Shown: positions 2,348 through 40,349, counted from the first letter of the stretch. The stretch is 64,000 nt of DNA from Candidatus Binatia bacterium (GCA_036009625.1 DASYLJ010000096.1:14297-78296), one strand, 5' to 3'. The notes: generated from the letters alone by a model not told the origin. Program-made: numbers and translations.

Positions 2348-2385
2348 CCTTGCATCCGGCCCGGCGGGTCGGGCGTAGGTGGCGC

Positions 2386-4148: not shown

Positions 4149-4152
4149 CCGC

Positions 4153-5865
4153 ATGACGCTCGGCTTCCGCCTGAAGATCCTGCTCGCCCTCATGCTGGTG
4201 GTGGCCGGGGTGACGGGCGGCGCGTTGCTGGTGACCCAGGCGAGCGTTGCCGCCACCTATCGCGCCCTCGTCGACGCGCGCCTCGACGGCGAAGCCGACG
4301 CCCTCGCCGCCCTGCAGGAGACGCGGCTCGCCGCCGTCAAGGCGAAGTGTCGCGATCTCGCCGGTTCGGTGCGCCTCGTCGCCGCCATGGAGGAGCACGA
4401 CGACGCCCTGCTCTACCGCATCGCGCTCGACGAGCTCCGCGACGTGCTCGGCCCCGAGGCCGCATCGGGGGGACGTCCGGCCGCCACGTTCTTCCGGCTG
4501 ATCGACGGCACCGGCCGCGTGCTGCCCACCACCGACGCGCGCGCCGGGCTCGTCGGCGGTGACGGCGGCGCCTGGGAGGAGCCGCTCGCCCGAGCGGCGC
4601 AGGGACTCGCGACGCAGGAGGTCGGCTACCTGGCGCCGCGGGTCGACGGCCGGGTCGCCTTCGTCGAGGTGATCCTGACGCCCATCCTCGATCGTGCCAC
4701 CGAGACCGTCGTCGGCGCCCTGGCGATCGGGTTCCCCGTCGGCGACGGCGGAGCACCACGCGCCGGCATCCGCGGCGGGCTCTGGGTGGACGGTCACCTG
4801 CAGATATCATCCATCCCGGCAGCGCTGGTCCCCGAGCTGTCGGCGATCGTCGTCCGCCAGGCCGATGGCGCGCCGGCGCTCGATCAGGTCGTCGACGTCG
4901 ATGGCGAGCCCTATCGCGTGCACGTGCGGCCCATGCGCACCGCGGCGCATCTGCCGCCGACCTTCCACGTCGGGCTGCATTCCGTCGCCGATGCCGTCGC
5001 CGCCGAGCACCGATTGCGGCTGCGTATTCTCGGCTTCGCCGCCCTGGCGCTCCTCGTCGCCTTCGGTCTCAGCGGACGCATCGCGCGCGGGCTCAGCGAA
5101 CCGGTGGAGGAGCTGGTCGCGGCGACGGCGCAGATCCAACGTGGCAACCTCGACGTGCGTGTTCCCACCCGTGGCCAGGACGAGCTCGGCCGGCTCGGCA
5201 CCGCGTTCAACGGCATGGCTGCCGACCTGGCACTGAAGGAACGCTACCGCAGCGTGCTCGATCTGGTCGCCGACCCGTCGGTGGCCGAGCAGCTGCTGCG
5301 CGGCGAGGTGACGCTCGGCGGCGAGCTGCGCGACGCCACCGTCCTCTTCGCCGACATCTGCGGCTTCACCGCGATGAGCGAGCACATGGCGCCGGCGGAG
5401 GTGATCGCGTTGCTGAACGAGCACATGACCGTGCTGACGCGGGTGGTGCACGACCACGGCGGCATCATCGACAAGTTCGTCGGCGACGCGATCATGGCCA
5501 TCTTCGGCGTCCCGCGCGGCGGCACCGACGATGCGTCACGCGCCGTCGCCGCCGCGCGCGCCATGCTGGCCGAGCGCGACGCGCTCAACGCACGCACACG
5601 GCGTCACATCACCATGAGCATCGGCATCGCCTCGGGCGCGATGGTGGCCGGCTGCATGGGATCGACGGACCGTCTCAACTACACGGTGCTGGGTGCGCGC
5701 GTGAACCTCGCCGCGCGGCTGTGCAGCGAGGCGTCGCCGATGACGATCCTGGTCGACGATGCCACCCGCCAGGCGCTGGGCGACACCGCGCGCGCGGAGC
5801 GTCTGCCCGCCCTGCAGCTCCGCGGCTTCAGCACGGCGGTGGACGCGTGGCACGTGGAGCGGTGA
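4153..5865 (+). CDS. Membrane-anchored adenylate/guanylate cyclase with HAMP domain
   Basis: N-terminal TM helix, second TM helix plus HAMP-like linker, then class III cyclase core FADICGFTAMSE...FVGDAIMAIFG...ARVNLAARL. 570 aa. Confidence 0.9.
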   Translation: MTLGFRLKILLALMLVVAGVTGGALLVTQASVAATYRALVDARLDGEADALAALQETRLAAVKAKCRDLAGSVRLVAAMEEHDDALLYRIALDELRDVLGPEAASGGRPAATFFRLIDGTGRVLPTTDARAGLVGGDGGAWEEPLARAAQGLATQEVGYLAPRVDGRVAFVEVILTPILDRATETVVGALAIGFPVGDGGAPRAGIRGGLWVDGHLQISSIPAALVPELSAIVVRQADGAPALDQVVDVDGEPYRVHVRPMRTAAHLPPTFHVGLHSVADAVAAEHRLRLRILGFAALALLVAFGLSGRIARGLSEPVEELVAATAQIQRGNLDVRVPTRGQDELGRLGTAFNGMAADLALKERYRSVLDLVADPSVAEQLLRGEVTLGGELRDATVLFADICGFTAMSEHMAPAEVIALLNEHMTVLTRVVHDHGGIIDKFVGDAIMAIFGVPRGGTDDASRAVAAARAMLAERDALNARTRRHITMSIGIASGAMVAGCMGSTDRLNYTVLGARVNLAARLCSEASPMTILVDDATRQALGDTARAERLPALQLRGFSTAVDAWHVER

Positions 5866-7049: not shown

Positions 7050-7206
7050 GTGCTCGCGGGGCGCGGAGGGTGGGCGGCGCACGGGGGCCGTCGTCCGCGC
7101 GGCGTTCGCTCGACACCACGCCGCCCCTTTTCCCCACCCGCTCACTCTCGACGCGCTCCTTGACGGCCCCCCTGCGCGCTCTCCTCCCACCGCGCCCCGC
7201 TCGTTG

Positions 7207-8262: not shown

Positions 8263-9614
8263 TCGATGCGCGCCGGGCCGATTCGATTCAACCGACCGGT
8301 GTACCGGCTCATGAGGGGGGTCACCGACACCCCATGCACCACGATCGACGTCGCCACGATCACGAGCGTGACGCCGGCGAGCCGCTCGGCCAGCGACGGG
8401 TCGATGCCCTGCTCGATGGCCCACGCCAGGTAGTAGATCGATCCGATGCCGCGAATGCCGAACCAGGCCATGTAGCCACCTTGATGGCGCGTCGCGATGC
8501 TGCCTGCGAGCCCGATCGCGACGGACACGGGTCGCACCACCAGCAGCAGCGCCGCCATGAGCGCGAGACCGCCCGGTGTGACCATCCACGCCGCCAGCAT
8601 GCCCCCGACCACGAGCACGATCGCCACCTCGCCGATGCGTTCGACGTGCTCGTTGAAGTCGAGGACGGCCCGCGCCATGTAGGCCGGCGCCTGCGTGGGA
8701 TCGACCGCCACCTCCTCGTCGGCCGCACCATCCGCGACCGCCTCCACCTCACGTGCCGGGCGTCCATCGCTGGCCTCGGCCTCGATCCCACGCAGGGCGA
8801 CGCCGGCGGCGAACACCGCCAGGAAGCCGTAGGTGTGGGCGAGCAGCGCCACGCCATACGACACCCCGATCAGTCCGAGGGCCACGAAGTCGTCGAACCC
8901 GAGCGCCTCTCGATGCTCGCGGCGGAGGAACAGGACGACGCGCGCGACGACGGTTCCGCAGGCGGTCCCGATGGCGAGCCCACCCACGACGGCCCACCCG
9001 ACGTCGACGACGAGCCACCGCCATCCGAAGGCGCCGAGGTCGTGCAGGCCGAGCAGCCCGAGGCCGAGCAGCGCGAACGGGAACGCCGCGCCGTCGTTCA
9101 GGCCCGCTTCACCCGTCAGCCCGAAGCGCAGCAGGTCGTGGTCGTCCGGATCCTCCACCTGGACGTCGCTCGCCAGCACCGGATCCGTCGGCGCGAGGAT
9201 CGCGCCCAGGAGCACCGCGGCGCCGAGCGGCAGCCCGAGCAGGATGACCCCCATGGCGGCCACCAGGACCACGGTGATCACCATCGAGATCGAGGCGAGC
9301 CGCATCGGCAACCACCAGCGCACGTCGCTCGGCGGGAGGCGCAGCTTGAGGCCCGCCGTGAACAGCGAGACGATCACCGCCGCCTCGGCCAGCCGATGGA
9401 CGACGGGCGCGCCCGCCACCGGGTCGAGCCGCACCAGGCCGAACCCCTCGGCCCCGATCACCACCCCGAGCGCCAGATAGATCAGCGACGTGCTCATCGG
9501 CAGCCGTCGGACCCGGGTCCCGGCCAGGGCGATCGCGATCAGGAGGCCGCCGACCGCGAGATACCAGAAGGCGAAATTCACCCAGCGGACGATAGCCGCT
9601 GGGCGGATTCGCAA
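8259..9614 (-). CDS. Na+/H+ (cation:proton) antiporter, CPA1/NhaP-like
   Basis: About 12 predicted TM helices. Conserved ILAPTDPV and GEAGLNDG motifs of Na_H_Exchanger family. TTG start in track; stop overlaps msrAB start (ATGA). Confidence 0.85.
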
Positions 9615-11586: not shown

Positions 11587-13521
11587 GTGTCGGTGACGAC
11601 GATTCGAATCGTTGCCCTGCTAGGTTTCGTCCTGCTGGCCTGCGGCGCTCACGCGGCGCACGGCCCGGATGCGACGAGCCTGAAGCTCGGCAGCGCCCTG
11701 CGCGAGGCGCCATTCGCCGCACGTTCGTCCGCGCCACGCGTGCAGGCGGCGGAGCCCTGGCGGCAGGGGTCGCGCGTCCACGTCTACGTCCGGGTGCGGT
11801 CGACCGACGCCGACGTCTTGAGCGCGCTGCGCGCGCGCGGGCTCGAGGTCGTCGTCGTGAGCGACGTCTTCGGCGGCCTCGTCGATGGATGGGCCGACGC
11901 GTCGACGCTCCCGGCGATCGCTGCGCTGCCGGCCGTGACGATGATCCGCCCGGTGGCACCGCCGGTGACGGATGCCGGTGCCGTCGTCACCGCGGGCGAC
12001 GCCGCGCTCCGTGCCGATGCGGTGCGCGCCGGCGGCTTCACCGGCGCCGGCGTTCCGTTGGGACTCATCTCCGACGGCATCTCGTCCGCGGCGATGTTCC
12101 AGAGCACCGGCGAGCTGCCCGCCATCACCGTGCCGCCGGATCCGCGCTGCAGCAGCTTCGACGGCGACGAAGGCACCGCCATGCTCGAGATCGTGCACGA
12201 CGTCGCCCCCGACGCCGGCCCGCTCTTCTTCGCGTCGTTCGGGCAGAGCGGTGCCTTCATGGCCGAGGCGGTGCGCTGTCTCGCCGACGCCGGCGCGCGC
12301 GTCATCGTCGACGACGTGACGTTCGGCGACGAGCCGTTCTTTCAGGACGGTCCGCTCGCCATCGCGGCGCGCGAGGTGGTGCAACGCGGCGTGACCTACC
12401 ACACCTCCGCCGGCAATCGCGGGCGCGAGTTCCTCGAGGAGCCCCTCGTGGCGACCGTCTTCGGGCCGCCCCTCGGCGTCATCCACGACTTCGATCCGGC
12501 GAACGGCGGTGATCCGGGCAACGAGGTCCTGATCGGTGCCGGTGGTGGCGCCAGCTGCGTGCTGCAGTGGAACGAGCCGTTCGGGGCGGCCGCCACCGAT
12601 CTCGACCTGTTGGTCGTCCAGAACGACCCGAACAACGTCATCGCCAAGAGCGACAACCCGCAGACCGGGATGCAGGACCCGGTCGAGATGGTGCAGATCA
12701 ACAACCCGACGGACACCGACAAGCGCGTCTCGCTCGTCGTGCAGTACTTCAGCGGCGATCCCAATCGGCGCTTCCGCCTGATGTGCTTCCGGTCGCGCGA
12801 GATGGAGCACGTCTCGGCCGAGGGGGCCATCTACGGCCAGCAGGCGGTCGCGGAGGTCATGGCCGTGGCCGCCATCAACATGGGCGACGAGGGACTCGAC
12901 ACGGTGAGCGCCGAGAGCTCGCCCGGTCCGGCGACGATTTTCTTCCCGGCCGCCGAGGTACGCGAGAAGCCCGACATCACCTCGTTCGACGGCGTCGAGA
13001 CCGCGGTCGGGCAGGCCGGGCTGTTTCCGAATCCGTTTTTCGGCACGTCCGCCGCGGCCCCGCACGCCGGGGCCGTCGCCGCGCTCATGCTGAGCAAGAA
13101 CCCGTCGCTCTCGCCGGCGCAGATCCAGCAGATCATGAAGGCGACGGCGGTCGACATCGGCGCGCCCGGCTTCGACCGACGGGCCGGCGCGGGCCGACTC
13201 GACGCGCTCGCCGCGGTCGCCGGCGTGCCCTGCCCCGACGTCGATGCGCTGCCCGCCCAGGCGTCCTGCGGCGGCGACAAGGCCCCGAAGCCCGCCCTCG
13301 CCGCGTATCGGTCGGCGCGGCGTCAGCTCGTCGCCGCCACGGGGACGACCGGGAAGAAGGCCTCCCGGAAGGCCGCCGCCGCGTTCAGGCTGGTCGCGAA
13401 GGGCCAGCGGATCGTCGACAAGCAGGCCGGCAAGGGCAAGGTCACGCCGTCGTGCGCGGCGAGCCTGCGCGGTGCCCTGTCGCTGGTCGGAACCGCGCTG
13501 ACCTGTCGATTCCCGGGCTGA
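11587..13521 (+). CDS. Secreted S8 (subtilisin-like) serine peptidase with C-terminal extension
   Basis: GTG start. Signal MSVTTIRIVALLGFVLLACGAHA. Catalytic Ser motif GTSAAAPHAGAVAALML. 644 aa. Confidence 0.8.
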   Translation: MSVTTIRIVALLGFVLLACGAHAAHGPDATSLKLGSALREAPFAARSSAPRVQAAEPWRQGSRVHVYVRVRSTDADVLSALRARGLEVVVVSDVFGGLVDGWADASTLPAIAALPAVTMIRPVAPPVTDAGAVVTAGDAALRADAVRAGGFTGAGVPLGLISDGISSAAMFQSTGELPAITVPPDPRCSSFDGDEGTAMLEIVHDVAPDAGPLFFASFGQSGAFMAEAVRCLADAGARVIVDDVTFGDEPFFQDGPLAIAAREVVQRGVTYHTSAGNRGREFLEEPLVATVFGPPLGVIHDFDPANGGDPGNEVLIGAGGGASCVLQWNEPFGAAATDLDLLVVQNDPNNVIAKSDNPQTGMQDPVEMVQINNPTDTDKRVSLVVQYFSGDPNRRFRLMCFRSREMEHVSAEGAIYGQQAVAEVMAVAAINMGDEGLDTVSAESSPGPATIFFPAAEVREKPDITSFDGVETAVGQAGLFPNPFFGTSAAAPHAGAVAALMLSKNPSLSPAQIQQIMKATAVDIGAPGFDRRAGAGRLDALAAVAGVPCPDVDALPAQASCGGDKAPKPALAAYRSARRQLVAATGTTGKKASRKAAAAFRLVAKGQRIVDKQAGKGKVTPSCAASLRGALSLVGTALTCRFPG

Positions 13522-15090: not shown

Positions 15091-16368
15091 TCAGGCGCGC
15101 AGCGTTGCCAGGCAACGCTGCGCCCGCGCCACCAGCAGCGCCGTCAATCGATCGACGACGGCGTGGGACAGACCATCGACGCCGGCACGGCGTGCGACGT
15201 CCGTCGCCGCATCGGGAAGCGCCGTCGCCAGGCGCTGCGCCCGGGCGAGCGTCGCATCGGCGTCGAGGTGCAGCTCGGTCGCCAGCTTCACCCAGTGCCG
15301 GCGCGTGATGTTGCGCAGCCGGTACTCGCCGCCGAGCTTCATCGCCAGCTTCATCCGCTCGGGGTCGAGGCTCGGGTACGGCAGGGCGCTGGCGAGATCG
15401 TACAGGGGCGCCAGGCGCGCTCGCCCACCGTCGCCGATCAGGATGGAGTAGTTCTTGGCGTGCGCGTCCGTCCCCGCGACGAGCCAGTTGAAGGCCAGCG
15501 CGTCGACGAAGGTGTCGACGTCGGCGTCGCGCGCCCGCGAGTGCTCGCGCAGCAGATCCGTGATCGTCCGAGCGCCTGGACCGCCCTCGCTCTCGTACTT
15601 CGTGCCCGGCGTCAGCCCCAGCGCCTGGCAGACGTCCTCCTGGTGGACGCGCACGAGGGTCGCGCCGACGCGCACCCGATCGTAGCGCTCGACGACGATG
15701 GCCAGCTCGTCGCCGAAGTGCATGACCCGCGACGTGGCCGTCGGCAGACCGAGCCTGCGGGCGAGCTCGAGGCTGCAATGCTCGTTCTCGATGTGACCGT
15801 CGAGCTCTCCCGACGGTGGCTTCAGGATGTGCGTCGTCGGGCGTCGACCCGAGGGGATGCCCCAGCGTCCGCTCTCGAAGACGAGCGCCGTCTTCGGCTG
15901 CGCACCGGCCAGGCTGAACTGTCCGGCGTCGTCGACCCGGCGCCACGCGCTCTGATCGCCGCGGAGGTCGCGCAGCCGTTCGGCGACGGCAGCGTCGTCG
16001 AGCCAGGCCACCGTTCCCGGTCCGTCGCGCCGTACGACGTCCAGGCGATCGGGCCGGGTGAACTGGACGGCGCCGGCGCAGTCCTCGCCGACGTGCGCGA
16101 TGAGGCCGAAGACGTTGCGTGCCGAGACACGGAAGCGTCGCGCCCAGCGATCGAGGATGTTGGCGTTGTCGGGCAGCAGCCCCCACAGGTAGGCGTCGAC
16201 GACGGCGTGCCCGTGCTCGGCGGCGGCGAGCGGCATGGAGAGCGACAGCGGATAGGCGTCGGCCTGCGAGCGCCAGCCGTCCTCGTAGACGAAGGACAGG
16301 CGACCGCGGCGACGGTGGACCGTGCCGATGACGGCGCCGTCCAGCAGGGCGATCAGGTCGTCACTCAC
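15091..16368 (-). CDS. hipA: Type II toxin HipA-family serine/threonine kinase
   Basis: GTG start overlapping hipB stop (GTGA). N-terminal VSDDLIALLDGAVIGTV... HipA_N. Kinase core with DAHAKNYS catalytic motif. 425 aa. Confidence 0.85.
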   Translation of the reverse strand: MSDDLIALLDGAVIGTVHRRRGRLSFVYEDGWRSQADAYPLSLSMPLAAAEHGHAVVDAYLWGLLPDNANILDRWARRFRVSARNVFGLIAHVGEDCAGAVQFTRPDRLDVVRRDGPGTVAWLDDAAVAERLRDLRGDQSAWRRVDDAGQFSLAGAQPKTALVFESGRWGIPSGRRPTTHILKPPSGELDGHIENEHCSLELARRLGLPTATSRVMHFGDELAIVVERYDRVRVGATLVRVHQEDVCQALGLTPGTKYESEGGPGARTITDLLREHSRARDADVDTFVDALAFNWLVAGTDAHAKNYSILIGDGGRARLAPLYDLASALPYPSLDPERMKLAMKLGGEYRLRNITRRHWVKLATELHLDADATLARAQRLATALPDAATDVARRAGVDGLSHAVVDRLTALLVARAQRCLATLRA

Positions 16369-16655
16369 GATCGGGGTCTCCGGGCGGCGTCGACGATCGC
16401 ATCGAGATCGACCGCTGGCCGGCCGGGCGTGCGCGGGGTGGCGGTCTCGTCGGCGACGGTGAGCGTCACGCCGAGCGCCTGCAAGGTTCGAAGCACGAGG
16501 CCGATTCCTGCGCGCGGCTTGCCCTTCTCGATCTCGACGATCCACTGCCGGCTCACCCCGACGTTCCTGGCGAGCGTGACCTGATCCAGATTCTGACGTC
16601 GGCGGTGATCGCGGATGATGGCACCGAGGTCGGTGGGCGTGTTGATGGGCGGCAT
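16365..16655 (-). CDS. hipB: HipB-like XRE-family HTH antitoxin
   Basis: MPPINTPTDLGAIIRDHRRRQNLDQVTLARNVGVSRQWIVEIEKGK is a Cro/C1-type HTH. 96 aa. Directly upstream of and overlapping hipA. Confidence 0.8.
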   Translation of the reverse strand: MPPINTPTDLGAIIRDHRRRQNLDQVTLARNVGVSRQWIVEIEKGKPRAGIGLVLRTLQALGVTLTVADETATPRTPGRPAVDLDAIVDAARRPRS

Positions 16656-16768
16656 GGACCCTCCCGTGGATGTCGTCGATCGGCGACATATTAGCATGTC
16701 TCCGATCGATGACATAGAGTCGCCGATCGGGGACATTTCGACATGTCGCCGATCGGCGACACGGTGAT
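16656..16768. promoter_or_regulatory. Array of four tandem 20-bp palindromic boxes (consensus ATGTCnCCGATCGGnGACAT), putative HipB operators / hipBA promoter
   Basis: Seen directly: ATGTCGTCGATCGGCGACAT, ATGTCTCCGATCGATGACAT, GTCGCCGATCGGGGACAT, ATGTCGCCGATCGGCGACAC at about 24-26 bp spacing between hipB start and the upstream Hsp70-like gene stop. Confidence 0.55.
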
Positions 16769-18028
16769 TCAGCCCGCGGCGCGCAGCGCCAGACCCTTCG
16801 CCACCGTCGTCAGCTCGTCGCCACCACGCAGATTGGCGCGCGCGAAGCGCTCGGCGAAGAGCCTGCGGACGGCCGGGACGAAGGCGGTGCCGCCGGTCAG
16901 GAAGACCGTCGCGACCTCCGCCGGCGGGACATTCGCCGTCGCGAAGAGGCGATCGACGCAGCCGGCGATGGCGTCAACGACCGGGGCGATCCACGCCTCC
17001 ATCTCGATGCGCGTGACGTTGGAGCCGAGCGCGATCGGCGGGGCGTCGAAGCGGAACGCGGCGTGCGTCTCGGTCGACAGCGTGCGCTTGGTGCCTTCGA
17101 TGTCGCCGTGCAGCCGGAACCCGAGGTCGTCGTCGACCAGGTGCATCAGCGCGTCGATCTTCTCCGGTTCGAGCGACTCGTGACGCAGCGTGCGCAGCGT
17201 CTCGAGCGTGTCGCGGGACTTGAGGAACGAGAGCTGATCCCAGCGCTCGACGCGCTCGTAGATCCAGCCCGGCATCGCCAGCTCGTTACCGAACGGCGTG
17301 CGACGCAGGGAGCCTGCCCCGAGCCCGGGCGCGGCGAGGTGACGGATCAAACGGGCATCGAAGGCGTCACCGGCGAGCGCCACGCCGTCGACGCCGAGAA
17401 TCGTGCTGCCGTTCGGACCGAGGCGCACCAGCGAGAAGTCGCTGGTGCCACCACCGAAGTCGCCGATCAGGACCAGCTCCTCGTGATCGAGACGCTGCTG
17501 GTACTGCGTCGCCGCGGCAAGCGGCTCGAGCGCGAACACGACCTCCTCGAAGCCCGCCTGCTGGACGGCGGTGCGGAGCCGCTGCTCGGCGAAGGCGTCG
17601 TCCTCCGGCGTGCGCGCCCCCGAGAAGTGCACGGGCCGACCGACGACCACCGCATGGCCCGGATCGCCCAGCTGTTCGATGGCGGCGCGCCGCAGCGCGC
17701 GCAGGAAGAGCGCGATCAGGTCCTCGAGCCGATACTGCACGCCGAAGAGGTTCGTCGTCGTGAAGTTCCGGCTCGCGAGGTGCGCCTTGATCGACTGGAT
17801 CAGCCGCCCGCGCCCGCCCGTCTCCAGCCACTCCCGAATCGCCGCCGGCCCCGCCGACACCCGCGGCGGCAACCCACTCTCCCCCGGCGCCTCGGGATCG
17901 ATGTAGAGAATCGACCGAAACGTCGCCGTCTGCCCATCGCCCTCCGCGAACGTGGCGAGCCGCGCAGTACCGTTGGGAGCGACGGCAGCAATCGCGCTGT
18001 TGGTGGTACCGAAGTCGAGCCCAAGCAC
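16769..18028 (-). CDS. Hsp70-family (actin-like ATPase) protein, nucleotide-binding domain only
   Basis: GTG start. MLGLDFGTTNSAIA phosphate-1 motif, later IGDFGGGTSDFSLV phosphate-2. Only 419 aa, so no full substrate-binding domain. Confidence 0.8.
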   Translation of the reverse strand: MLGLDFGTTNSAIAAVAPNGTARLATFAEGDGQTATFRSILYIDPEAPGESGLPPRVSAGPAAIREWLETGGRGRLIQSIKAHLASRNFTTTNLFGVQYRLEDLIALFLRALRRAAIEQLGDPGHAVVVGRPVHFSGARTPEDDAFAEQRLRTAVQQAGFEEVVFALEPLAAATQYQQRLDHEELVLIGDFGGGTSDFSLVRLGPNGSTILGVDGVALAGDAFDARLIRHLAAPGLGAGSLRRTPFGNELAMPGWIYERVERWDQLSFLKSRDTLETLRTLRHESLEPEKIDALMHLVDDDLGFRLHGDIEGTKRTLSTETHAAFRFDAPPIALGSNVTRIEMEAWIAPVVDAIAGCVDRLFATANVPPAEVATVFLTGGTAFVPAVRRLFAERFARANLRGGDELTTVAKGLALRAAG

Positions 18029-18166
18029 AGTTCACCAACCCTAGCAGCGATCCACGTGCGTACCACGCATGCCGCGCCGGCTTCGCCGGCCCGCGGCACG
18101 CCGGTCGCGCGGATCACTACCGCGAAACTCTCGCGCCCGACCCGAGCGTCGCTCGGGTCGGCGTGA

Positions 18167-19303
18167 CTACTCCCGGACCAGGATGTGCGCCGCGCAGACG
18201 CTGCCGCCGCCCATCATGTGGCAGAGCCCGGCGCGCGCGTTCGGCACCTGACGCTTGCCGGCTTCGCCGCGGAGCTGGAGCGTCGTCTCCCAGATCTGCG
18301 CCAGACCCGTCGGACCTCCCGGGTGACCGCGCGCGATCAGGCCACCGTCGGTCGAGAACTGCGTCTTGCCGCCGGGGCCGAAGCGGCCTTCCTCGATGTA
18401 CTTCTCGGCCTCGCCCGGTCGGCAGAAGCCGAGCAGCTCGTAGTACTCGAGCTCCTCGATGGCGAAGGCGTCGTGCACCTGCACCAGCTGGATGTCCTCG
18501 GGGCCGATGCCCGCCGCCGGATAGATGGTGGCGGCACAATCACGGCTCATCTGCGCCGGACCGACCACGGGTCCCACGAAGAGATGACCGCGCTCGTACT
18601 TCTCGCTGCCGAGGTACGACGCCGCCACGCGCACGACGGGGCGATCGGGCTGGTGCTGCTTCACGAGATCGGCGCGCGACAGCACGACCGCGGCCGCGCC
18701 GTCGCCGATGGGGCACGACATCATGGCGGTCAGCGGCCACGCCACCATGCGCGAGCCGAGCACCTTCTCGACGGTGACCGTCTCCGACGCCTGGCGCTGG
18801 CTCATCGGGTTCAGCGCGCCGTAGTTCCAGTTCTTGGCGGCGATGGCGGCGAGGTGCTCCATCTTCGTGCCGCGCTCGTGCATGCGACGCGTGGCCCACA
18901 TGGCGAAGAACGCCGCCGGCAGGATGGCCTCGTCCATGTCCTGCGGGTTCGGCGCCGAGCCCATGACCGTGGTCATCTTGTCGAAGCCCAGCACCAGCAC
19001 GCGGTTGTAGTGGCCACCCGAGATGGCGAGATACGCCTCGCGCATGGCACAGGTGCCGGTGGCGGACGCGTTCTCCACGCGCTGCACCGGCACGCCGGTC
19101 ATGCCGATCTCTTTGAGGGCCCGCACGCCCGACATGACCGGCATGAAGAGCTGGCCGATGTAGACGGCGTCGATGTCGTTGAAGCTGATGCCGGCGTCGT
19201 CGAGCGCCGCCAGGCCGGCGTCGCGCGCCATGACGCTGTGGTGGGTGTCCGGGTACATCCCGAACCGGATCATCCCGACGCCGAGAACTGCGACCTTTTC
19301 CAT
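18167..19303 (-). CDS. Thiolase-like protein (SCP-x / lipid-transfer type)
   Basis: MEKVAVLGVGMIRFG N-terminus. Active-site region ASATGTCAMREA (Cys). C-terminal GHPGGPTGL. 378 aa. Confidence 0.85.
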   Translation of the reverse strand: MEKVAVLGVGMIRFGMYPDTHHSVMARDAGLAALDDAGISFNDIDAVYIGQLFMPVMSGVRALKEIGMTGVPVQRVENASATGTCAMREAYLAISGGHYNRVLVLGFDKMTTVMGSAPNPQDMDEAILPAAFFAMWATRRMHERGTKMEHLAAIAAKNWNYGALNPMSQRQASETVTVEKVLGSRMVAWPLTAMMSCPIGDGAAAVVLSRADLVKQHQPDRPVVRVAASYLGSEKYERGHLFVGPVVGPAQMSRDCAATIYPAAGIGPEDIQLVQVHDAFAIEELEYYELLGFCRPGEAEKYIEEGRFGPGGKTQFSTDGGLIARGHPGGPTGLAQIWETTLQLRGEAGKRQVPNARAGLCHMMGGGSVCAAHILVRE

Positions 19304-19308
19304 TGCGA

Positions 19309-19737
19309 TCAACCCTCTGCCGGCCGGAAGCGCAGGATGACGATGTCGCTGCCACCGTCCTCGCGCAGGGCCTCGAGCTCGCCCGTGAGTGCCATGCCGA
19401 CCTTGAACTCCGGCTGCTTGCCCGCGAGCGGCACCTGCAGCCGCGGTCCCTGGGGCAGGTCGACCTGGCCCACGCCGTAGCCCTCCATGTGCTCGATCCG
19501 CATCGAGCCGAAGAGCGGCATGTGCACGAAGGTGAAGCTGTACAGCGTGGCCTTCGCCTCCACCTGCACGTCCTCGGTGTTGCGCGACAGGCACTTCGCG
19601 CACACGAAACGTCGGGGGAAGAAGAACTCGCCGCAGTCCTTGCACCGGGTGCAGCACACCTCGGGGGGGACGCTCGGGTCGTCGGGAATGGTGAAGTAGC
19701 CGGCTTTGAGTGCCTTGCGGGGGCGTACGTCGGTCAT
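19309..19737 (-). CDS. DUF35 OB-fold/zinc-ribbon protein (thiolase partner)
   Basis: CTRCKDCGEFFFPRRFVCAKC zinc ribbon followed by OB-fold. 5 nt upstream of thiolase start, the typical DUF35-thiolase pairing. Confidence 0.75.
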   Translation of the reverse strand: MTDVRPRKALKAGYFTIPDDPSVPPEVCCTRCKDCGEFFFPRRFVCAKCLSRNTEDVQVEAKATLYSFTFVHMPLFGSMRIEHMEGYGVGQVDLPQGPRLQVPLAGKQPEFKVGMALTGELEALREDGGSDIVILRFRPAEG

Positions 19738-19816
19738 GGCGGGTCGGGAGAGTGACATGGCGGCCGCGGGCAAGTCCAGGGTTGCGGGATGCGCGGCCCC
19801 GGTGGCACACCGGAAC

Positions 19817-20587
19817 ATGGGCTACGCGAGCGAATACGATGCGGTGGCGGCCCGCTGGTACGACGGCAGCTACGATCACATCCGCAGCCGCGCCGACGCC
19901 GACTTCTACCGCGCCCTCGCCGGTGAGACCGGCGGCGGCCCCGTCCTCGAGCTCGGCTGCGGCACCGGACGCGTCCTGCTCCCCATCGTCGCCGACGGCC
20001 TGCCGTGCACCGGCCTCGACGCGTCACCGGCCATGCTCGACGTGCTGCGGACCAAGGCCCCGCCGGTGTCGCTGCAGCTGGTCTGCGCGCCGATGCAGGC
20101 GTTCGACCTCGGGGGGGCGCACTTCGCGCTGATCTTCTCGGCCTTTCGCGCCTTCCAGCATCTCCTCACCGTCGACGACCAGCTCGCCTGCCTCGCCGGC
20201 GTTCGCCGCCATCTCGCCCCGAACGGCCGGCTCGCCTTCGACGTCTTCGCACCGTTCCTCGACCGCACCGCCGTCATCGACGAGCCCGAGGCGGCCGACG
20301 CCTGCTTCCAGAAGGACGGCTGCGACGTGACGCGATACGTGCGCATCCACCGCGACCTGGCGACGCAGGTCGCCGAGATCCACATGCGCTACGAGCAGCG
20401 GCGCGACGGCGTGGTCGTCGCCGAGGACCACGAGTCGTTCCACATGCGTTGGACGCATCGCTACGAGCTCGAGCACCTGCTGGTGCGCGCCGGCTTCGCC
20501 GTCGACGCCGTCTACGGCGCCTTCGACCGGCGGCCGTACGACTACGTCTCGGGAGAGGTGGTCGTGGTGGCGCGCGCCGCGACGTAG
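19817..20587 (+). CDS. Class I SAM-dependent methyltransferase
   Basis: VLELGCGTGRVLLPIV motif I. 256 aa from ATG at 19817. 3' end overlaps the convergent transporter gene. Confidence 0.75.
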   Translation: MGYASEYDAVAARWYDGSYDHIRSRADADFYRALAGETGGGPVLELGCGTGRVLLPIVADGLPCTGLDASPAMLDVLRTKAPPVSLQLVCAPMQAFDLGGAHFALIFSAFRAFQHLLTVDDQLACLAGVRRHLAPNGRLAFDVFAPFLDRTAVIDEPEAADACFQKDGCDVTRYVRIHRDLATQVAEIHMRYEQRRDGVVVAEDHESFHMRWTHRYELEHLLVRAGFAVDAVYGAFDRRPYDYVSGEVVVVARAAT

Positions 20588-23340
20588 GCTGCGTTCATGC
20601 GCTCCAGGCGATCGCTCAGGATGCGCGTCAGGTTCAGGAAAACGCGCGACGCGATGCGCGGGTAGCGACGCTGGATGCGCTGCAGGAAGGTCTGGTCGAC
20701 GCGCAGCACCTCGACGTCGTCACCGGACGCGATGACGTCGGCGGTGCGCTCGTTGTGGCGTACCAGTGCCATCTCGCCGAAGACGTCGCCGCGCTTGAGA
20801 TGGGCCAGCTCGCGACGGTCGCCGTTCGAGTTGATGACCACCTTCGCCTCGCCGTTCAGCACGACGTACATGGCGTCGCCGGGATCACCCTGGTTGACGA
20901 TGGCCTCGCCGGGGCGGAAGCGCTTCATGTCGCCCATCAGCACGACGACGCGTGCCTGCGACGGCCGCAGGCCGGCGAAGAGCGGGATGGTACGCGCCGG
21001 ATCCTCGCCCAGCTTGACGCCAACCAGGTCCCAGAGGGTGATGATCTTCGCGGTCGCGAGCAGCGCCGGCAGCAGGATCAGGTTGGCGCCGAGCGCGGTC
21101 GCCATGGTGACGCTCGAAAGCACGCCGAAGTTCTGGATCGGCACGAAGCTCGAGAACGCGAACGTCAGGAAGCCCAGGAAGAGCGCCACCGTCGTGTAGA
21201 TGATGGGCGCGCCCACCGTGCGCAGCGTGCGCGCGATGGCCTCCTCCTGGTCGGTCTCGCCGCGCAGCTCGAGGTTGAGCCGCGCCATGTAGTGGATGGT
21301 CGAATCGACGGCGATGCCGAGCGCGATGGCGGCGATGAGGCTGGTGCCGAGGTTCAGGTAGATGCCGCTCCAACCCATCACGCCGAAGAAGATCAGGATC
21401 GGCAGCGCGTTCGGCAGGATGGCGAGGAAGCCGATCCGCACCGAGAGGAACATCAGCGACATCACGATGAAGATGACGCCGAGGGCCAGCGCCAGGCTCT
21501 TCACCTGCCCCGCCACGATCTCCGACGTCGTGCCGGTGAGCAGCACCAGGTTGCCGGTGAGGGTCACCGGTAGCTCGGCCGGAAAGTGGTTCGCGATGTA
21601 CGCCCGGATGCGGCCCAACGTCTGCTCGATGACGGCCGAGCCCGACAGGTTGGTGCGCACCAGGATGCTCGCGGTCGCGAAGTCCGGCGTGATCACGCTC
21701 GAGAACGTCTCCGGGCTCGTGCTCACCATCTTGAGCACGGGATCCAGCATGGCCGGGTCTTCCCAGAACGTCTTCGGCTTGTCCGCCGCCACCAGGTTGC
21801 CCTGCGCGTCGACCACCAGGTCGCCGCCCGTCCCTTTGTTGAGGCCGCTCTCCAGCAGCTCGAGGTAGTCGACGACGGAGATCGACGACGTGATGCCCGG
21901 CTGCTCCGCCAGGAACCGCTGCAGGTCCTTGATGAGCCACAGCGTGGTCCACTTGCGCAGCGCGCCGGCCTCGCGCCCGTCGACGATGATGTAGAACGGG
22001 TTCGAGCCGACGATCTCGCGGTTGATGATCTCGTTGTCGACCCGCACCTCCGAGCGCGGGCTGAAGTACGACAGGAAGTCGGAGTCGACCTGGATGCGCG
22101 TCATGCCGACGAGCGAGACCAGCGCGATGGCGAGGCTCACGGCCCATATCCACGGCCGCGACGACGCCGCCGATCGCGCCAGGCGCGACAGCAGCGGCAT
22201 CAATGCGGGCGAGCCATCCTTCGCCCGCACCGCGACCCGCTCGATCGGCAGCATGGCGAGGACAGCCGGCAGGAAGCACAGGCAGACGATGGTGAGGAAC
22301 ACGGTGCCGACGACGGCGAAGAAACCGAGCTCCCAGATGGCGGGGATGCGGTTCACCATCAACGAACCGAAGCCGATGACGGTGGTCACGGCAGAGATCG
22401 TCAGCGGCACCCACACGCGGTCGAAGGCGGCGCCCACGACCTCGGCCTCGTCGCCCCCGGTCTCCGCCTGCTCGTAGTAGCGGGCCATGACGTGGATCGC
22501 GTACGAGCTGCCGACGACGAGCATCAGCGGCGGCAGCACGAAGGTGCCGAGCGTGATGGCCTTCCCCATCGCCACCAACACGCCGAGCGTCCACACCAGG
22601 GCCATCAGCACGGTGAGCAGCGGCAGCAGCACGCCACGCTTGGTGCGAAACGATATCCAGAAGGTGAGGACGACGCCGATCAGCGCGATCGGCGTGAAGC
22701 GGAAGAGGTCGCGGCGCATGAGCCGCACCGCTGCCTCCTTCAGGTGCGCCGCGCCGGTGAAGTAGAACTTCTGCTGCGGTGCCTCCTCGGTCGCGAGGAT
22801 CTCCGCGATGCGGTCGTCGAGCCGGAGGTCGGCGTACTGCACGTCGCTCAGCGGCGCGAAGAAGACGTTGATGGCGGCGCCGCGCTCGTCGGGCGCCACC
22901 AGGTTCTCGCGATAGAGCGGCACGGCCGCGAGCTTGGCGCGCAGCGTCGCGATCTCCTCGGGCGACGGCGGCAGGCGCGGCAGCAGCGGCGGCGGCGTGA
23001 AGACGTCGGCGGCGACGTCCTTCGCATTGGTGATGCTGAGCACGCTCTCGACGCCCTCGAGCTTGCTCACCGCGGTCGTCACACGCGCGATCTTCTCGAG
23101 CGTCGCCGGCGAGAACAGGTCGTCGGCCCGCACGCCGATGACGCCGACGTCGTCGCTGCCGAAGCGCTTGCGGACCTGGTCGTAGTAGGTGACCTGCGGG
23201 TCGCCCGCGGGGAGCACGCTCTCGAGCGAGCTCTCGATGCGGATGCCGAGCGCGAACCACCCCAGCACGGCAGTGACCGCCAGCATCGTGACGAGCACGC
23301 TGGACGGGTGCCGGACGAGCCAGCGCGCCATGCGGTTCAT
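20542..23340 (-). CDS. MMPL/RND-superfamily membrane transporter fused to a C-terminal cyclic-nucleotide-binding (CAP_ED) domain
   Basis: Start MNRMARWLVRHPSSVLVTMLAV. Two 6-TM bundles each followed by periplasmic domains (MMPL/HpnN-like topology). C-terminal 130 aa RVVVLMGDMKRFRPGEAIVNQGDPGDAMYVVLNGEAKV...GDVFGEMAL... is a canonical cNMP-binding fold. 932 aa. Confidence 0.85.
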   Translation of the reverse strand: MNRMARWLVRHPSSVLVTMLAVTAVLGWFALGIRIESSLESVLPAGDPQVTYYDQVRKRFGSDDVGVIGVRADDLFSPATLEKIARVTTAVSKLEGVESVLSITNAKDVAADVFTPPPLLPRLPPSPEEIATLRAKLAAVPLYRENLVAPDERGAAINVFFAPLSDVQYADLRLDDRIAEILATEEAPQQKFYFTGAAHLKEAAVRLMRRDLFRFTPIALIGVVLTFWISFRTKRGVLLPLLTVLMALVWTLGVLVAMGKAITLGTFVLPPLMLVVGSSYAIHVMARYYEQAETGGDEAEVVGAAFDRVWVPLTISAVTTVIGFGSLMVNRIPAIWELGFFAVVGTVFLTIVCLCFLPAVLAMLPIERVAVRAKDGSPALMPLLSRLARSAASSRPWIWAVSLAIALVSLVGMTRIQVDSDFLSYFSPRSEVRVDNEIINREIVGSNPFYIIVDGREAGALRKWTTLWLIKDLQRFLAEQPGITSSISVVDYLELLESGLNKGTGGDLVVDAQGNLVAADKPKTFWEDPAMLDPVLKMVSTSPETFSSVITPDFATASILVRTNLSGSAVIEQTLGRIRAYIANHFPAELPVTLTGNLVLLTGTTSEIVAGQVKSLALALGVIFIVMSLMFLSVRIGFLAILPNALPILIFFGVMGWSGIYLNLGTSLIAAIALGIAVDSTIHYMARLNLELRGETDQEEAIARTLRTVGAPIIYTTVALFLGFLTFAFSSFVPIQNFGVLSSVTMATALGANLILLPALLATAKIITLWDLVGVKLGEDPARTIPLFAGLRPSQARVVVLMGDMKRFRPGEAIVNQGDPGDAMYVVLNGEAKVVINSNGDRRELAHLKRGDVFGEMALVRHNERTADVIASGDDVEVLRVDQTFLQRIQRRYPRIASRVFLNLTRILSDRLERMNAAYVAARATTTTSPET

Positions 23341-23430
23341 GAGCCGCGGCACTATACCGTCGCCCTCCTGCCGCCGCGAGGGCCGCGAAGGACCTTGCTT
23401 TCTGACCCGCCGCCCGGAAAGGCTGCCCCG

Positions 23431-24429
23431 ATGGACGTCCCGCGGGTCTCGGTCCTGCTCCCGGCCCGCGACGCCGCGGCGACGCTCGGCGCCTGCCTGC
23501 GGAGCCTCATCCGGCAGACGCTGCGCGACTGGGAATGCGTGGTCGTCGACGACGGCTCGCGCGACGAGACGGCCGCCATCGCCGCCGCGGCCGATCCCCG
23601 CATCCGGGTCATCCGGATTCCGCACGCGGGCGTCGTCGCCGCGGCCATGACCGGCCTGGGCGAGTGCCGCGCTCCGCTGGTGGCGCGCATGGACGCCGAC
23701 GACGTCATGCACCGCGGGCGTTTGGCCCTGCAGGTGACGGCGCTCGACGCCGATCCCGGGCTCGCCGCCGTCGGTGCGCACGTCCGTTTCTTTCCGCGCC
23801 GCGACATGACCGACGGCCTACGCGCGTACGAGCTGTGGCTGAACGGCATCGGGTCGGAGGCCGCGGTGCGGACGGAGGCGTTCGTCGAGCTCCCGGTGGC
23901 GAACCCGACGCTCTGTGGACGCCGATCGGTGCTGACGGCGCGCGGCTATCGGGATCACGGCTGGCCCGAGGACTACGACCTGCTGCTCCGCATGCTGGCG
24001 GCGGGCGATCGCATCGGCATCGTTCCGCGCCGCCTCCTCGGCTGGCGCGACCATCCACGACGCCTCACGCGCACGCACGCCTCCTACACCCAGGACCGCA
24101 TCGTCGCGTGCAAGGCACATTACCTGGCCAACGGGATCCTCGCCGGCGTCGACCGCTACGTGCTCTGGGGCTACGGCGGCACCGGTCGCGCGCTACGACG
24201 TGCCCTGGCGCTCCACGGCAAGCACCCGTCGCACATCGTCGAGCTGCACGCGGGGCGTCTCGGCAACCGCATCCATGGCGCGCCGGTGGTGCCGCCCGAG
24301 GCCCTGGACACGATGCCGCGCGCGCCCCTGGTCGCATCGGTGGCCGGGGACGTCGCGCGGCGCGACATCCGCGCCTTCCTCGGCGCCCGCGGCTGGGTCG
24401 AGACGCGCGACTACGTCTGCGCGGCGTGA
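23431..24429 (+). CDS. Glycosyltransferase family 2
   Basis: VSVLLPARDAAATLGACLRSLIRQTLRDWECVVVDDGSRDET... GT-A fold with DDG and DAD motifs. 332 aa. Divergent from the MMPL gene. Confidence 0.85.
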   Translation: MDVPRVSVLLPARDAAATLGACLRSLIRQTLRDWECVVVDDGSRDETAAIAAAADPRIRVIRIPHAGVVAAAMTGLGECRAPLVARMDADDVMHRGRLALQVTALDADPGLAAVGAHVRFFPRRDMTDGLRAYELWLNGIGSEAAVRTEAFVELPVANPTLCGRRSVLTARGYRDHGWPEDYDLLLRMLAAGDRIGIVPRRLLGWRDHPRRLTRTHASYTQDRIVACKAHYLANGILAGVDRYVLWGYGGTGRALRRALALHGKHPSHIVELHAGRLGNRIHGAPVVPPEALDTMPRAPLVASVAGDVARRDIRAFLGARGWVETRDYVCAA

Positions 24430-24439: not shown

Positions 24440-26284
24440 TCACTCGACGTAGCCCAGCGCACGCAGGCGTTCGCGCGCGGCGGGATCCATGGGCGGCGCG
24501 GCCGCCGTCACCGCCGCGTCGAGCGCCGGCAGGCCGAGTGCCTGCACCCACGCCTCCAGGTCGGAGCGCAGCCGCGTCACACGATCGGGACGCGCGGCCG
24601 CGACGTCGCGCGTCTCGCCGGGATCGACCTGCAGATCGAAGAGCCACTGGCCGCCGGCCGAGTCGACGACGAGCTTCTCCGTCCCGGACCGATAGGCGCG
24701 GAAGCGGCGATCGTGGCGCAGCAGCGGATCGCCGCTGGCGTCGGACGCACTGCCGAGCATGCTGGCGTACTGCTCCGCGAGCCCCGGGCCCGGCGCCGGG
24801 CGTCCCCGGTTCGACGGCAGCAGCGAGCCCGCCTGCACCGACGGCGGCACCGCGATGCCGAGCAGATCGCAGATGGTGGCGTAGACGCCGGCCGACGACA
24901 CCGGCTGCGACGCCCGTCCCGTGCGCACCACCGGCGGATACCGCACCAGCAACGGCACGTGCAGCACCGGCTCGTACACCGAGTGCCCGTGGCCGAACTC
25001 GCCGTGCTCGCCAAGCAGCTCGCCGTGATCGGCGAGCACGACGATGATCGTGCGGTCGAGCGTCCCACGACGGCGGATCGCCTCCACGACCTGGCCGAGC
25101 AACGCATCGGCGTAGAGGATCCCGGCGTCGTACATGGCGGTGGCGTCGACGCGCGCCGTCTCGACGTCGGGCGCCGGTCCACCGAACTCCGCGGCGACGA
25201 GCTGGAGGCTCAGGCGGCGCAACGTCGAGAGTGGCGTCGTCGTGAACCGACCCAGGTACGACGCCGGCAGCTGATGGTACGGGAAGTGCGCCTCGATGAA
25301 GTTGAGGAACACGAACGCCGGCGGCGCGTCGGCAGGACGCGCCATGAACCAGGCGTCGAAGGTCGCCGCCACGCCCGCGCCACCCTTGTCGAGCGGTCCG
25401 ATGCCGAACCGCTCGAGCACGCGGTGCATCGAGTGCATCGAGCGTGCGACGTCGCCGTTGCGCCACGCCTCGTCGGTCCAGGCGAAGCCCCGGATCATGC
25501 CGAGGCCGTCGCTGATCCAGGCATTGGCCGTGAACGAGCGCGTGTCCCAGCCGGCGGCGGCGAGCGTCTCGGCCAGCGTCGACGACCCCGGGTCCAGGTA
25601 GCGGTGCTCGTCGTGCGCCGCATGCGCCGACGCGAAGCGGCCGGTGAACAGCGAGGCGTGCGACGGCAACGACCAGGTGGCGGGCGAGATCGCCTCCAGG
25701 AAGAGCAGACCATCGGCGGCGAGCGCATCGAAGTTCGGCGTGGTCGGCCGCTCGTAGCCGTACGCCGAGACGTGATCGGCACGCACGGTGTCGAGCACCA
25801 CGACGACGACGTCCGGCGCGTTCGGCGGCGGCGTGCCGCGGGTGACCGCGGGCGCGGGATCCGCCCCCCGTCCAGCCCACACCTCGGGGAGCACCACGCC
25901 GGCGACGACGAGGAGCACGGCGGTCACCACCGCCGCGCGCGGGACGCGACGTCCGAGCAGCACGAGGCCGCACGCGACCGCGGGCGACCCCGCCCCGACG
26001 AGCTGGAACTGCACGCTCTGCGGCGCCACCGCCACCTCGATCGCCGCCCACGCCAGCGCCACCGCGAGCAGATGCGACGTCGACCCCTGGCGCAGCAGGA
26101 ACGCCACGAGCAGCCCGAGCAACGCGCCCAGCACGACGGCCATGCCCGCGCCCGTGACCAGCATCGTCACGGGCGGGCGCATGTTGAACGCCATCACCTG
26201 CGCCGCGCCGAGCCAGGTGAGGAGCACGGCCATGGCGAGGCCGAAGCCCGCGCCACGCCATGCACCGTCGAACGCGGTGCGCAC
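24440..26284 (-). CDS. Membrane-anchored sulfatase-like (alkaline phosphatase superfamily) hydrolase/transferase
   Basis: 4-5 N-terminal TM helices, then sulfatase domain VVVVLDTVRADH...SPATWSLPSHASLFTG (non-canonical, Thr/Ser in place of the Cys-x-Pro-x-Arg motif), ...VVLADHGE. 614 aa. Confidence 0.8.
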   Translation of the reverse strand: MRTAFDGAWRGAGFGLAMAVLLTWLGAAQVMAFNMRPPVTMLVTGAGMAVVLGALLGLLVAFLLRQGSTSHLLAVALAWAAIEVAVAPQSVQFQLVGAGSPAVACGLVLLGRRVPRAAVVTAVLLVVAGVVLPEVWAGRGADPAPAVTRGTPPPNAPDVVVVVLDTVRADHVSAYGYERPTTPNFDALAADGLLFLEAISPATWSLPSHASLFTGRFASAHAAHDEHRYLDPGSSTLAETLAAAGWDTRSFTANAWISDGLGMIRGFAWTDEAWRNGDVARSMHSMHRVLERFGIGPLDKGGAGVAATFDAWFMARPADAPPAFVFLNFIEAHFPYHQLPASYLGRFTTTPLSTLRRLSLQLVAAEFGGPAPDVETARVDATAMYDAGILYADALLGQVVEAIRRRGTLDRTIIVVLADHGELLGEHGEFGHGHSVYEPVLHVPLLVRYPPVVRTGRASQPVSSAGVYATICDLLGIAVPPSVQAGSLLPSNRGRPAPGPGLAEQYASMLGSASDASGDPLLRHDRRFRAYRSGTEKLVVDSAGGQWLFDLQVDPGETRDVAAARPDRVTRLRSDLEAWVQALGLPALDAAVTAAAPPMDPAARERLRALGYVE

Positions 26285-37548: not shown

Positions 37549-37634
37549 GGACGGGCTCCCTTCCGGAACGTGAAGCGTGGCGGCCGCGCGTGGAATCCAC
37601 GCGCGGCCGCCGTCGTGATCAGAACGTCAGTGCC

Positions 37635-40289: not shown

Positions 40290-40329
40290 CGGCAGCTCGG
40301 CGAGCGAGCGGGCTTGGGTGTGGTGGCGT

Positions 40330-40349
40330 CGCGGAGGCCCCCCTCCGCG
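40330..40349 (-). terminator. GC-rich hairpin downstream of mgtE
   Basis: CGCGGAGG-cccc-CCTCCGCG perfect 8-bp stem just 3' of the mgtE stop. No U-tract, so intrinsic termination is uncertain. Confidence 0.3.

Follow-up and report, generated by a model that had tools for sequence, protein, structure and literature searches.

Is an RND-type exporter placed under the direct control of a cyclic nucleotide by a domain fused to its C-terminus? The question is raised by a gene in a 64,000-nt stretch of DNA from a Candidatus Binatia bacterium (GCA_036009625.1 DASYLJ010000096.1:14297-78296; the whole of this stretch is called the window here), which a reading of the sequence alone had described as encoding a 932-amino-acid (aa) MMPL/RND-type exporter ending in a complete cyclic-nucleotide-binding (CNB) domain. 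The gene is complete and lies where that reading had placed it, at 20542..23340, with its stop codon at 20542-20544; it is on the minus strand, which the sequence-only reading had left unsaid. The assignment is based on the open reading frame (ORF) and its translation, on Pfam, and on an identical database protein. The profile hidden Markov model (HMM) search suggested with the earlier reading finds both domains above threshold in one polypeptide: MMPL (PF03176) in two stretches, with E=2.8e-37 and 128.9 bits against a cut-off of 20.5, and cNMP_binding (PF00027) over aa 806-892, with E=5.6e-22 and 78 bits against a cut-off of 27.5, covering profile positions 2-88 of 89. Weak Sterol-sensing and Patched matches were also obtained with Pfam.

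The gene occupies a single minus-strand ORF, 20542..23781 when counted from the first GTG; the 932-aa version begins at ATG 23340. This ATG is taken as the start because the N-terminal alignment with 39 homologues runs from residue 1, M1 being nearly invariant; because database protein P0001, also of 932 aa, is 100% identical; and because the same ATG is found in five orthologous loci (the window, L001, L002, L005, and L086), each with a conserved TATAGT-like hexamer 10 nt upstream. In the window this -10-like hexamer is at 23351-23356 on the minus strand, within the 90-nt intergenic region (23341..23430) that, in the alignment of the five loci, separates the transporter gene from a divergent GT2 glycosyltransferase gene. 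It surfaced only through the cross-locus alignment; a strict sigma-70 scan of 20300-23700 found no full promoter. A Shine-Dalgarno sequence is not evident ahead of the transporter ATG. The position of the hexamer, 10 nt from the ATG, together with this lack of an evident Shine-Dalgarno sequence, suggests a leaderless or near-leaderless transporter mRNA.

The fused architecture is found far beyond this window. The best 120 of 517 homologues (64-100% identity, 916-966 aa, mostly labeled Candidatus Binatia, from JGI, ENA, NCBI, and Logan assemblies) all contain both PF03176 and PF00027. An exhaustive phmmer search over 1.84 billion cluster representatives (50%-identity clusters) gave 6891 matches at E<1e-30; the best 150 are mostly ~900-930 aa long, 28-45% identical, and aligned to the query over ~1-915, and after their realignment a CNB domain was found in ~119 of 132 long representatives. 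Among GTDB species genomes, the fused form is present in Binatia, Syntrophobacteria, Desulfobacterales, Myxococcota, Rokubacteria/Methylomirabilota, Acidobacteriota, Muiribacteriota, and Gamma- and Alphaproteobacteria, including the isolates Solimonas sp. SE-A11, Thalassospira profundimaris, and Pacificispira spongiicola, so that the distribution across genomes on which the sequence-only reading had suggested a check is a broad one. This genome scan used the transmembrane helix (TM) 10 pattern ...VD[DA]T.H, which leaves out the D-S clade of the window protein (discussed below) and under-represents its closest genome-level relatives; that clade was covered through the homologue clusters and orthologous loci instead.

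These data leave a negligible place for an artefact in which two genes were joined by a frameshift, a mis-assembly, or a chimeric contig, and this was rejected. Nothing was found in its favor; P0001 is identical throughout, the same length and architecture recur in more than 120 independent clusters from JGI, ENA, NCBI, and Logan as well as among the best 150 representatives, fused homologues occur in isolate genomes, and the junction is the best conserved segment. The G+C content at third codon positions (GC3) is high on both sides of the fusion (0.97 and 0.91); the window has ~70% G+C throughout. That the fusion is real and encoded by one intact gene can be regarded as virtually certain.

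In a neighbor-joining tree of the transporter body, which has no support values and a sampling that favors fused matches, the unfused relatives form at least 7 small clades scattered among the fused ones, a pattern that would fit a single ancient fusion followed by loss or replacement. The fusion family is large, old, and present in at least 8 phylum-level groups, and it is unstudied rather than unseen. Database names for such proteins are generic (“MMPL family transporter,” “predicted RND superfamily exporter protein”), and routine domain scanning picks the proteins up; the family is neither rare nor hidden. The earlier suggestion of a possibly undescribed architecture can be kept for the literature, where full-text searches found no description of an RND/MMPL/HAE3 protein with a CNB domain, and has to be given up for the databases, where there are many entries.

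The tail is, on the evidence of sequence and model, a complete CNB fold with an intact predicted phosphate-binding cassette for a cyclic nucleoside monophosphate (cNMP), as the earlier reading had proposed from its GDVFGEMAL core. The domain (aa 793-932; 20545..20964, minus strand), assigned from PF00027, PDB sequence matches, and an AlphaFold2 (AF2) model, is composed of a beta-barrel (804-882), a B helix (883-892), and a long C helix of 34 residues (894-927). Its best PDB sequence match is Plasmodium PKG (E=3.5e-26), with others to PKA regulatory subunits, Epac, SthK, and CRP. The cassette, delimited by conservation in the close clade and in the family, covers aa 851-868 (GDVFGEMALVRHNERTAD; 20737..20790, minus strand): the GDVFGEMAL core at aa 851-859 is followed by R865-T866-A867, giving the motif G-E-x(8)-R-[ST/A]-A (G855-E856...R865-T866-A867), with a Gly-Glu to Arg spacing that we take to be equal to that of PKA RI-alpha. 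In the close clade G855, E856, and R865 are invariant and A867 is conserved at >=90%; of the ~119 fused representatives, 118 retain G855, 104 E856, and 110 R865, and 81 have the strict G-E...R-[ST]-A cassette. R-T-A cassettes occur in both cGMP- and cAMP-selective domains, so that the sequence would fit either ligand. No helix-turn-helix (HTH) domain follows the CNB domain, the protein stopping ~5 aa past the C helix. A transcription factor of the CRP/FNR type was considered and rejected, since the protein is without an HTH and its CRP-family NCBIfam matches are limited to the CNB part. Basic residues read from the sequence in the N-terminus, the TM6-7 loop, and the segment after TM12 argue for a cytoplasmic location of the CNB domain.

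Between TM12 and the CNB domain is a linker (aa 762-792, AKIITLWDLVGVKLGEDPARTIPLFAGLRPSQ; 20965..21057, minus strand), defined by conservation and the AF2 model. Within the close clade it has the highest identity of any part of the protein (86.5%), followed by TM8-12 (81.5%), the C helix (70%), the body (68%), and the CNB domain (62%); in the diverse set, all four regions other than the body, the CNB domain included, are above the body average. W770 is found in 110/121 and D771 in 109/121 of the aligned representatives, and these two linker residues, with P894 and N903 at the B/C-helix junction, are invariant or nearly so family-wide. So strongly constrained a connector looks like what would be expected of an allosteric coupling element.

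The remainder of the protein has the twin 6-TM plus periplasmic-loop architecture proposed earlier, now borne out by the two Pfam stretches, the AF2 model, and Foldseek. In the model (mean pLDDT 80.2, pTM 0.69), 12 TM helices and two periplasmic domains are followed by a beta-barrel and helices at the C-terminus (793-927). The body (aa 1-761; 21058..23340, minus strand), delimited by AF2 secondary structure and Foldseek matches, is modeled as TM1 (aa 12-30), periplasmic domain 1 (aa ~31-196), TM2-6 (aa 197-363), a basic cytoplasmic TM6-7 loop (aa 364-393), TM7 (aa 395-413), periplasmic domain 2 (aa ~414-596), and TM8-12 (aa 597-761); this is the pseudo-symmetric 12-TM arrangement of the RND fold, with large periplasmic domains at TM1-2 and TM7-8. 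Against the PDB, Foldseek matches the body to MmpL5, MmpL4, and MmpL3 (TM-score 0.72-0.77 normalized to the target), and to HpnN (TM-score ~0.64), NPC1/NCR1, and Patched, all with probability 1.0 and at 14-17% identity; none of these structures carries a CNB domain. An ion channel of the CNG/HCN/SthK type was rejected as well: the membrane part has the RND fold, not that of a channel, and the CNB domain alone matches.

Placement within the superfamily is less close. The sequence-only reading had named HpnN-type exporters, but the HpnN equivalog HMMs (TIGR03480 / NF052374) give only 122.7 against a cut-off of 751.85 and 68.1 against 1100, and membership was rejected; Pfam scans of the window ORFs found no hopanoid-biosynthesis families (hpn/shc), and for HpnB there was just a weak partial 36-bit match, on the GT2, against a cut-off of 379. 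Membership of the mycobacterial MmpL group (TIGR00833; actII, HAE2) was likewise rejected at 163.2 against 874.7, and no mycolate genes were found among the window ORFs scanned. The nearest NCBIfam subfamily is HAE3 (TIGR00921), with 235.7 bits, under its cut-off of 351.9. An RND transporter of the MMPL/HAE3-like, lipid-handling branch is the best reading.

The candidate proton-relay aspartate is D679 (codon 21304..21306, minus strand) in the TM10 motif GIAVDSTIH, with Y280/H283 in TM4 and H683 as putative partners. D679 and H683 are each kept in 124/129 representatives and H283 in 115/129, all three being nearly invariant in both alignments; the family motif in TM10 is GIAVD(D/S)TIH, and TM4 retains G277, Y/E280, and H283. 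Residue 280 is Y, not Asp, in the window protein and E in 48/129 relatives. At aa 679-680 (21301-21306) the Binatia clade of the window protein has D-S, while the family mostly has D-D (D680 in 107/129), a clade-specific change in the putative relay. Conservation of the TM10 Asp and of the TM4 and TM10 His residues is what would be expected of an active proton-coupled pump, and by analogy with RND pumps D679 would act in the relay.

More can be learned from the company that the family keeps. Flanking ORFs were clustered from 82 loci, 57 with fused and 25 with unfused transporters. The commonest neighbor is a LolA-like protein (PF17131, TP_0789-like) of ~265-285 aa, encoded directly upstream on the same strand in 19/57 fused loci and mostly downstream in unfused relatives; in P0180, the RND and LolA-like proteins are covalently fused. 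Both observations argue for a hydrophobic cargo that is passed to a periplasmic carrier. Class III cyclase ORFs occur within 5 kb at 7/57 fused loci and at 0/25 unfused ones. In Solimonas sp. SE-A11 (L047), a 1080-aa Zn-ribbon/class III cyclase/AAA_16 STAND protein (1806-5048), a LolA-like protein of 265 aa (5176-5973), and a 904-aa MMPL-CNB transporter (6001-8715) are encoded co-directionally in that order, with gaps of 127 and 27 nt, in an apparent operon; the arrangement recurs in two related genomes (L033 and L036), and a gammaproteobacterial metagenome-assembled genome (L065) has a divergent cyclase-AAA16-TPR gene adjacent to the transporter. The tail itself varies among the representatives, from RND with two CNB domains (P0223), through RND with two CNB domains and PilZ (P0267) and RND with CNB and GGDEF (P0191, P0243), to an RND-histidine kinase (RND with HisKA/HATPase, P0165). 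On the strength of these variants, the C-terminus of this RND clade is a predicted modular signaling hub, mostly for nucleotide second messengers.

Taken together, we infer on well-motivated grounds that the transporter is under direct cAMP/cGMP control. The tail very probably binds a cNMP, and it is fairly probable that what it regulates is transport. The reading that we favor, with rather more confidence than doubt, is that of a proton-driven RND exporter of hydrophobes or (glyco)lipids that is set allosterically by cAMP or cGMP through its fused CNB domain. Such a pump would sit in the inner membrane, use the proton motive force, and move a hydrophobic component of the envelope out of that membrane, plausibly a glycolipid in whose synthesis the divergent GT2 takes part; that its substrate is a GT2-derived glycolipid is offered only tentatively, and another glycosylated hydrophobe may be carried instead. 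In most relatives the cargo would probably be handed to a periplasmic carrier of the LolA-like type. With cAMP (or cGMP) bound at E856, R865, and T866, the B and C helices and the helical N-terminal portion of the CNB domain would rearrange, and the change would pass via the linker to the TM8-12 bundle with D679, switching the transport cycle. In PKA-R, PKG, Epac, and HCN the ligand relieves autoinhibition, and by analogy this would be its most likely effect here; provided that transport is what is regulated, activation rather than inhibition is nevertheless to be taken as an evenly balanced call. Export would then track the cellular cNMP level post-translationally.

Several observations weigh against this reading or parts of it. 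About a third of the fused representatives depart from the strict cassette motif, with PKA-like R-A-A cassettes, other variants, and a few that are clearly degenerate. AF2 confidence is low in the linker at 769-784 (pLDDT <50) and in part of the cassette (858-862). Pfam scans of the window ORFs found neither a cyclase nor a LolA-like gene adjacent to the window transporter, the nearest DUF1329/LolA-like ORF (53438-55414) being 30 kb away. The cyclase enrichment (7/57 as against 0/25) is small and partly redundant phylogenetically. Conserved divergent gene order is all that ties the GT2 to the substrate. Finally, P0165 indicates that the transporter body can be a signaling input rather than a regulated output.

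This last point leads to a different view of the protein, in which the RND body would be mainly a membrane-lipid sensor or anchor, and the CNB domain would use cNMP to control oligomerization, localization, or recruitment of partners instead of the transport cycle. The same body is indeed fused to HisKA/HATPase (P0165) and to CNB plus GGDEF (P0191, P0243), with the cytoplasmic part as signaling output; it has similarity to the Sterol-sensing domain and Patched; and the long C helix (894-927) could allow dimerization as in CRP. The CNB-only form, however, has no output domain, and the domain gained in the PilZ variant is a pure receptor. Residues typical of active pumps, the Asp in TM10 and the His residues, are kept, and a LolA-like carrier in the operon, or fused, argues for a real transfer of cargo; we consider this view unlikely. 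It is distinctly unlikely, too, that the CNB-fold tail binds some other ligand (compare CooA, NtcA, CprK, and Clp) or acts as a structural or autoinhibitory module for which no ligand is needed. Examples exist of CNB folds that have taken on other ligands (Kannan 2007, PMC2246266), and the strict motif is absent from 40 of ~121 aligned representatives, but all the canonical cNMP contacts (G-E, R-T-A), spaced as in PKA, are retained in the window protein and in its clade, genuine cNMP binders head the PDB matches (E ~1e-26), and class III cyclases are adjacent in several lineages.

If a cNMP does control the exporter, a possible source of it is encoded in the window. The sequence-only reading had pointed to a HAMP adenylate cyclase ~15 kb upstream as the candidate. 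The gene is real (4153..5865, plus strand; Pfam HAMP and Guanylate_cyc), but relative to the minus-strand transporter gene it is ~15 kb downstream. Aligned to solved cyclases, it has a Lys in “IDKF,” a residue shared with the engineered adenylyl cyclase 6FHT and replaced by Glu in the guanylyl cyclase Cya2 (2W01), and a Thr in “nyTvlG,” as in CyaC (1WC1). These two positions, which we take to be the class III specificity pair, are the reason for predicting a class IIIb adenylate cyclase that makes cAMP. Its being a membrane HAMP class III enzyme and a predicted cAMP producer in the same window could make it this transporter's dedicated signal source. It does not share an operon with the transporter, however, and no cyclase was found in the flanks of the orthologous loci, which cover 10 kb in L001, L002, and L005 and 6 kb in L086 and thus fall short of 15 kb. 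The cyclases linked to the family elsewhere, in Solimonas and L065, are moreover of another type (Zn-ribbon-cyclase-AAA16/STAND). A dedicated partnership is therefore unsupported by the four orthologous loci over those flanks, and we think it highly unlikely; the enzyme is plausibly one cAMP source among probably many, unlinked to the transporter.

The other neighbors bear mainly on cargo. The window transporter gene is monocistronic. Divergent from it is the GT2 gene (23431..24429, plus strand; Glycos_transf_2, E=8.2e-27), encoding a soluble 332-aa protein with a DADD motif and an extra C-terminal domain of ~110 aa; no NCBIfam equivalog threshold was reached, and the closest solved relatives are polysaccharide GT2 domains. 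The divergent GT2 recurs ~70-90 nt from the transporter start at L001, L002, L005, and L086 (87, 69, 67, and 69% identity, respectively), and to judge by this gene order it is a conserved partner of the orthologue group. On its other side, the transporter gene is convergent with an S-adenosylmethionine (SAM)-methyltransferase gene (19706-20587, plus strand), with which its 3′ end overlaps by 46 nt (20542-20587), as also occurs in L001 (12763-12808). Beyond this is a minus-strand block (16769..19818) assigned by Pfam to a ChsH2-like OB/Zn-ribbon protein (19309-19818), an SCP-x-type thiolase (18167-19300), and an Hsp70-like ATPase (16769-18031); the same genes are downstream in L001, L002, L005, and L086, and by this gene content the ChsH2-like/thiolase/Hsp70-like block is syntenic with the transporter. 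Toxin-antitoxin genes interrupt the otherwise syntenic block in the window, where a HipA-like kinase (15091-16809, minus strand) that L001 lacks is inserted, and in L002, where a VapBC (PIN) pair (12808-13478) directly follows the transporter gene.

Genes for envelope and glycoconjugate functions are plentiful in the window: two membrane sulfatase-family proteins with weak EptA-like matches, a GDSL lipase, GtrA, GH1, GH116, GT2-TPR, a CDP-alcohol phosphatidyltransferase, LpoB, and DUF1329/LolA-like. The sulfatase-family genes are at 335-2347 (plus strand) and, immediately beside the GT2, at 24440-26284 (minus strand); the protein encoded by the latter has weak partial NCBIfam matches to phosphoethanolamine-lipid A transferases (EptA/MCR) and arylsulfatases, and may modify envelope lipids. 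A GH116/GT2-TPR/DsbA block (45218-51568) is ~22 kb from the GT2-transporter pair in the window and ~5-9 kb upstream of it in L005 (702-5594), a difference in distance that implies insertion or rearrangement between block and pair. Two adjacent minus-strand ORFs of 688 and 968 aa (35563-37626 and 37638-40541) have a strong coding signal (GC3 ~0.9) and no Pfam match at E<=1e-4.

Family members with 64-66% identity to the window protein are found in different contexts (L003, P0070, L088, L087) and are probably paralogues. In L003 (7319-9793) and in the P0070 context (3212-5725), a gene divergent from the paralogous MMPL-CNB gene encodes a protein of ~824-837 aa that Pfam does not match, and this protein may be a partner specific to that paralogue; a DUF1329/TP_0789-like (LolA-like) gene is nearby in both. 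In L088, a Binatia-type paralogue with 64% identity, a TolC-like OEP gene (PF02321; 4643-5977) is 24 nt upstream on the same strand, which hints that some family members might work with an outer-membrane channel.

RND/MMPL pumps build and defend the cell envelope, handling mycolates, hopanoids, siderophores, and drugs, and the control that we know of for them is transcriptional or exerted via small accessory proteins. The interest of the fused family is a testable hypothesis of second-messenger gating of such pumps, to which the present analysis contributes hosts in culture and a cyclase linked at the level of an operon. If it is true, these would be the first nucleotide-gated RND transporters, adding direct second-messenger gating to the superfamily; cNMP signaling would be tied directly and post-translationally to the lipid composition of the envelope in at least 8 phylum-level groups, and cAMP/cGMP signaling in environmental bacteria would gain a concrete non-transcriptional target. 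A wider proposition, which we hold and doubt in equal measure, is that the clade is a widespread, formerly unrecognized set of RND lipid exporters gated directly by second messengers and setting the delivery of hydrophobic or glycolipid cargo: cAMP/cGMP, acting on the fused CNB domain, and c-di-GMP, acting on PilZ in the variants, would set the rate at which cargo is handed over to LolA-like carriers for delivery to the outer membrane. For the Binatia, which have no cultured representative among the records retrieved, the conserved GT2 partner would point to a regulated step in glycolipid export. Solimonas, Thalassospira, and Pacificispira carriers are cultured, making the hypothesis directly testable.

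Among known systems, MmpL3, MmpL4, MmpL5, and the Burkholderia hopanoid exporter HpnN (PDB 5KHN) share with the window protein the 12-TM RND fold and two periplasmic domains, and they handle lipid-like cargo; at 14-17% identity, however, it fails their family thresholds. MmpL3 also has a cytoplasmic C-terminal extension, but no solved relative in this group has a CNB domain. The MmpL3 proton relay consists of Asp-Tyr pairs, whereas the window protein has Y280/H283 in TM4. The best subfamily score is that of HAE3 (TIGR00921), whose TP_0789-type LolA-like partners (PF17131) have their counterparts upstream in the 19/57 fused loci described above; the window protein falls under the HAE3 cut-off and has no adjacent LolA-like gene, and classical HAE3 members, to our knowledge, have no CNB tail.

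CNB domains are found on other transporters. MFS-CNBD and ABC-CNBD fusions, where CNBD is the cyclic-nucleotide-binding domain (e.g., the CNB-containing transporters of M. tuberculosis), also carry the domain on a transporter, but of a different superfamily; we know of no mechanistic characterization of them. The “cyc_nuc_ocin” bacteriocin-transport proteins (TIGR03896) partially match the window CNB region. The CNB domain on transporters has been described as a “plug-and-play” regulatory module (review, PMC10710835); the same 2023 review of post-translational transporter control gives CNBD fusions for MFS only and, for RND, only the small proteins AcrZ and WatS1. A 2007 census of CNB families includes no RND class (PMC2246266), and a census of second messengers in Acidithiobacillus mentions an RND pump only as the neighbor of a CYTH cyclase, not as a fusion.

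Channels offer the other comparison. In HCN/CNG, SthK, MloK1, and the bacterial MscS-CNB proteins, the CNB domain likewise comes after the last TM helix, through a conserved linker, and the CNBDs of SthK and CNG channels match the window tail at E ~1e-9 to 1e-11. These channels are passive pores, tetrameric or heptameric, while the window protein is a predicted secondary-active RND pump; and the linker here, at ~30 aa, has no recognizable C-linker fold in the AF2 model. The logic would be common to both: a cytoplasmic cNMP controls a membrane transport protein.

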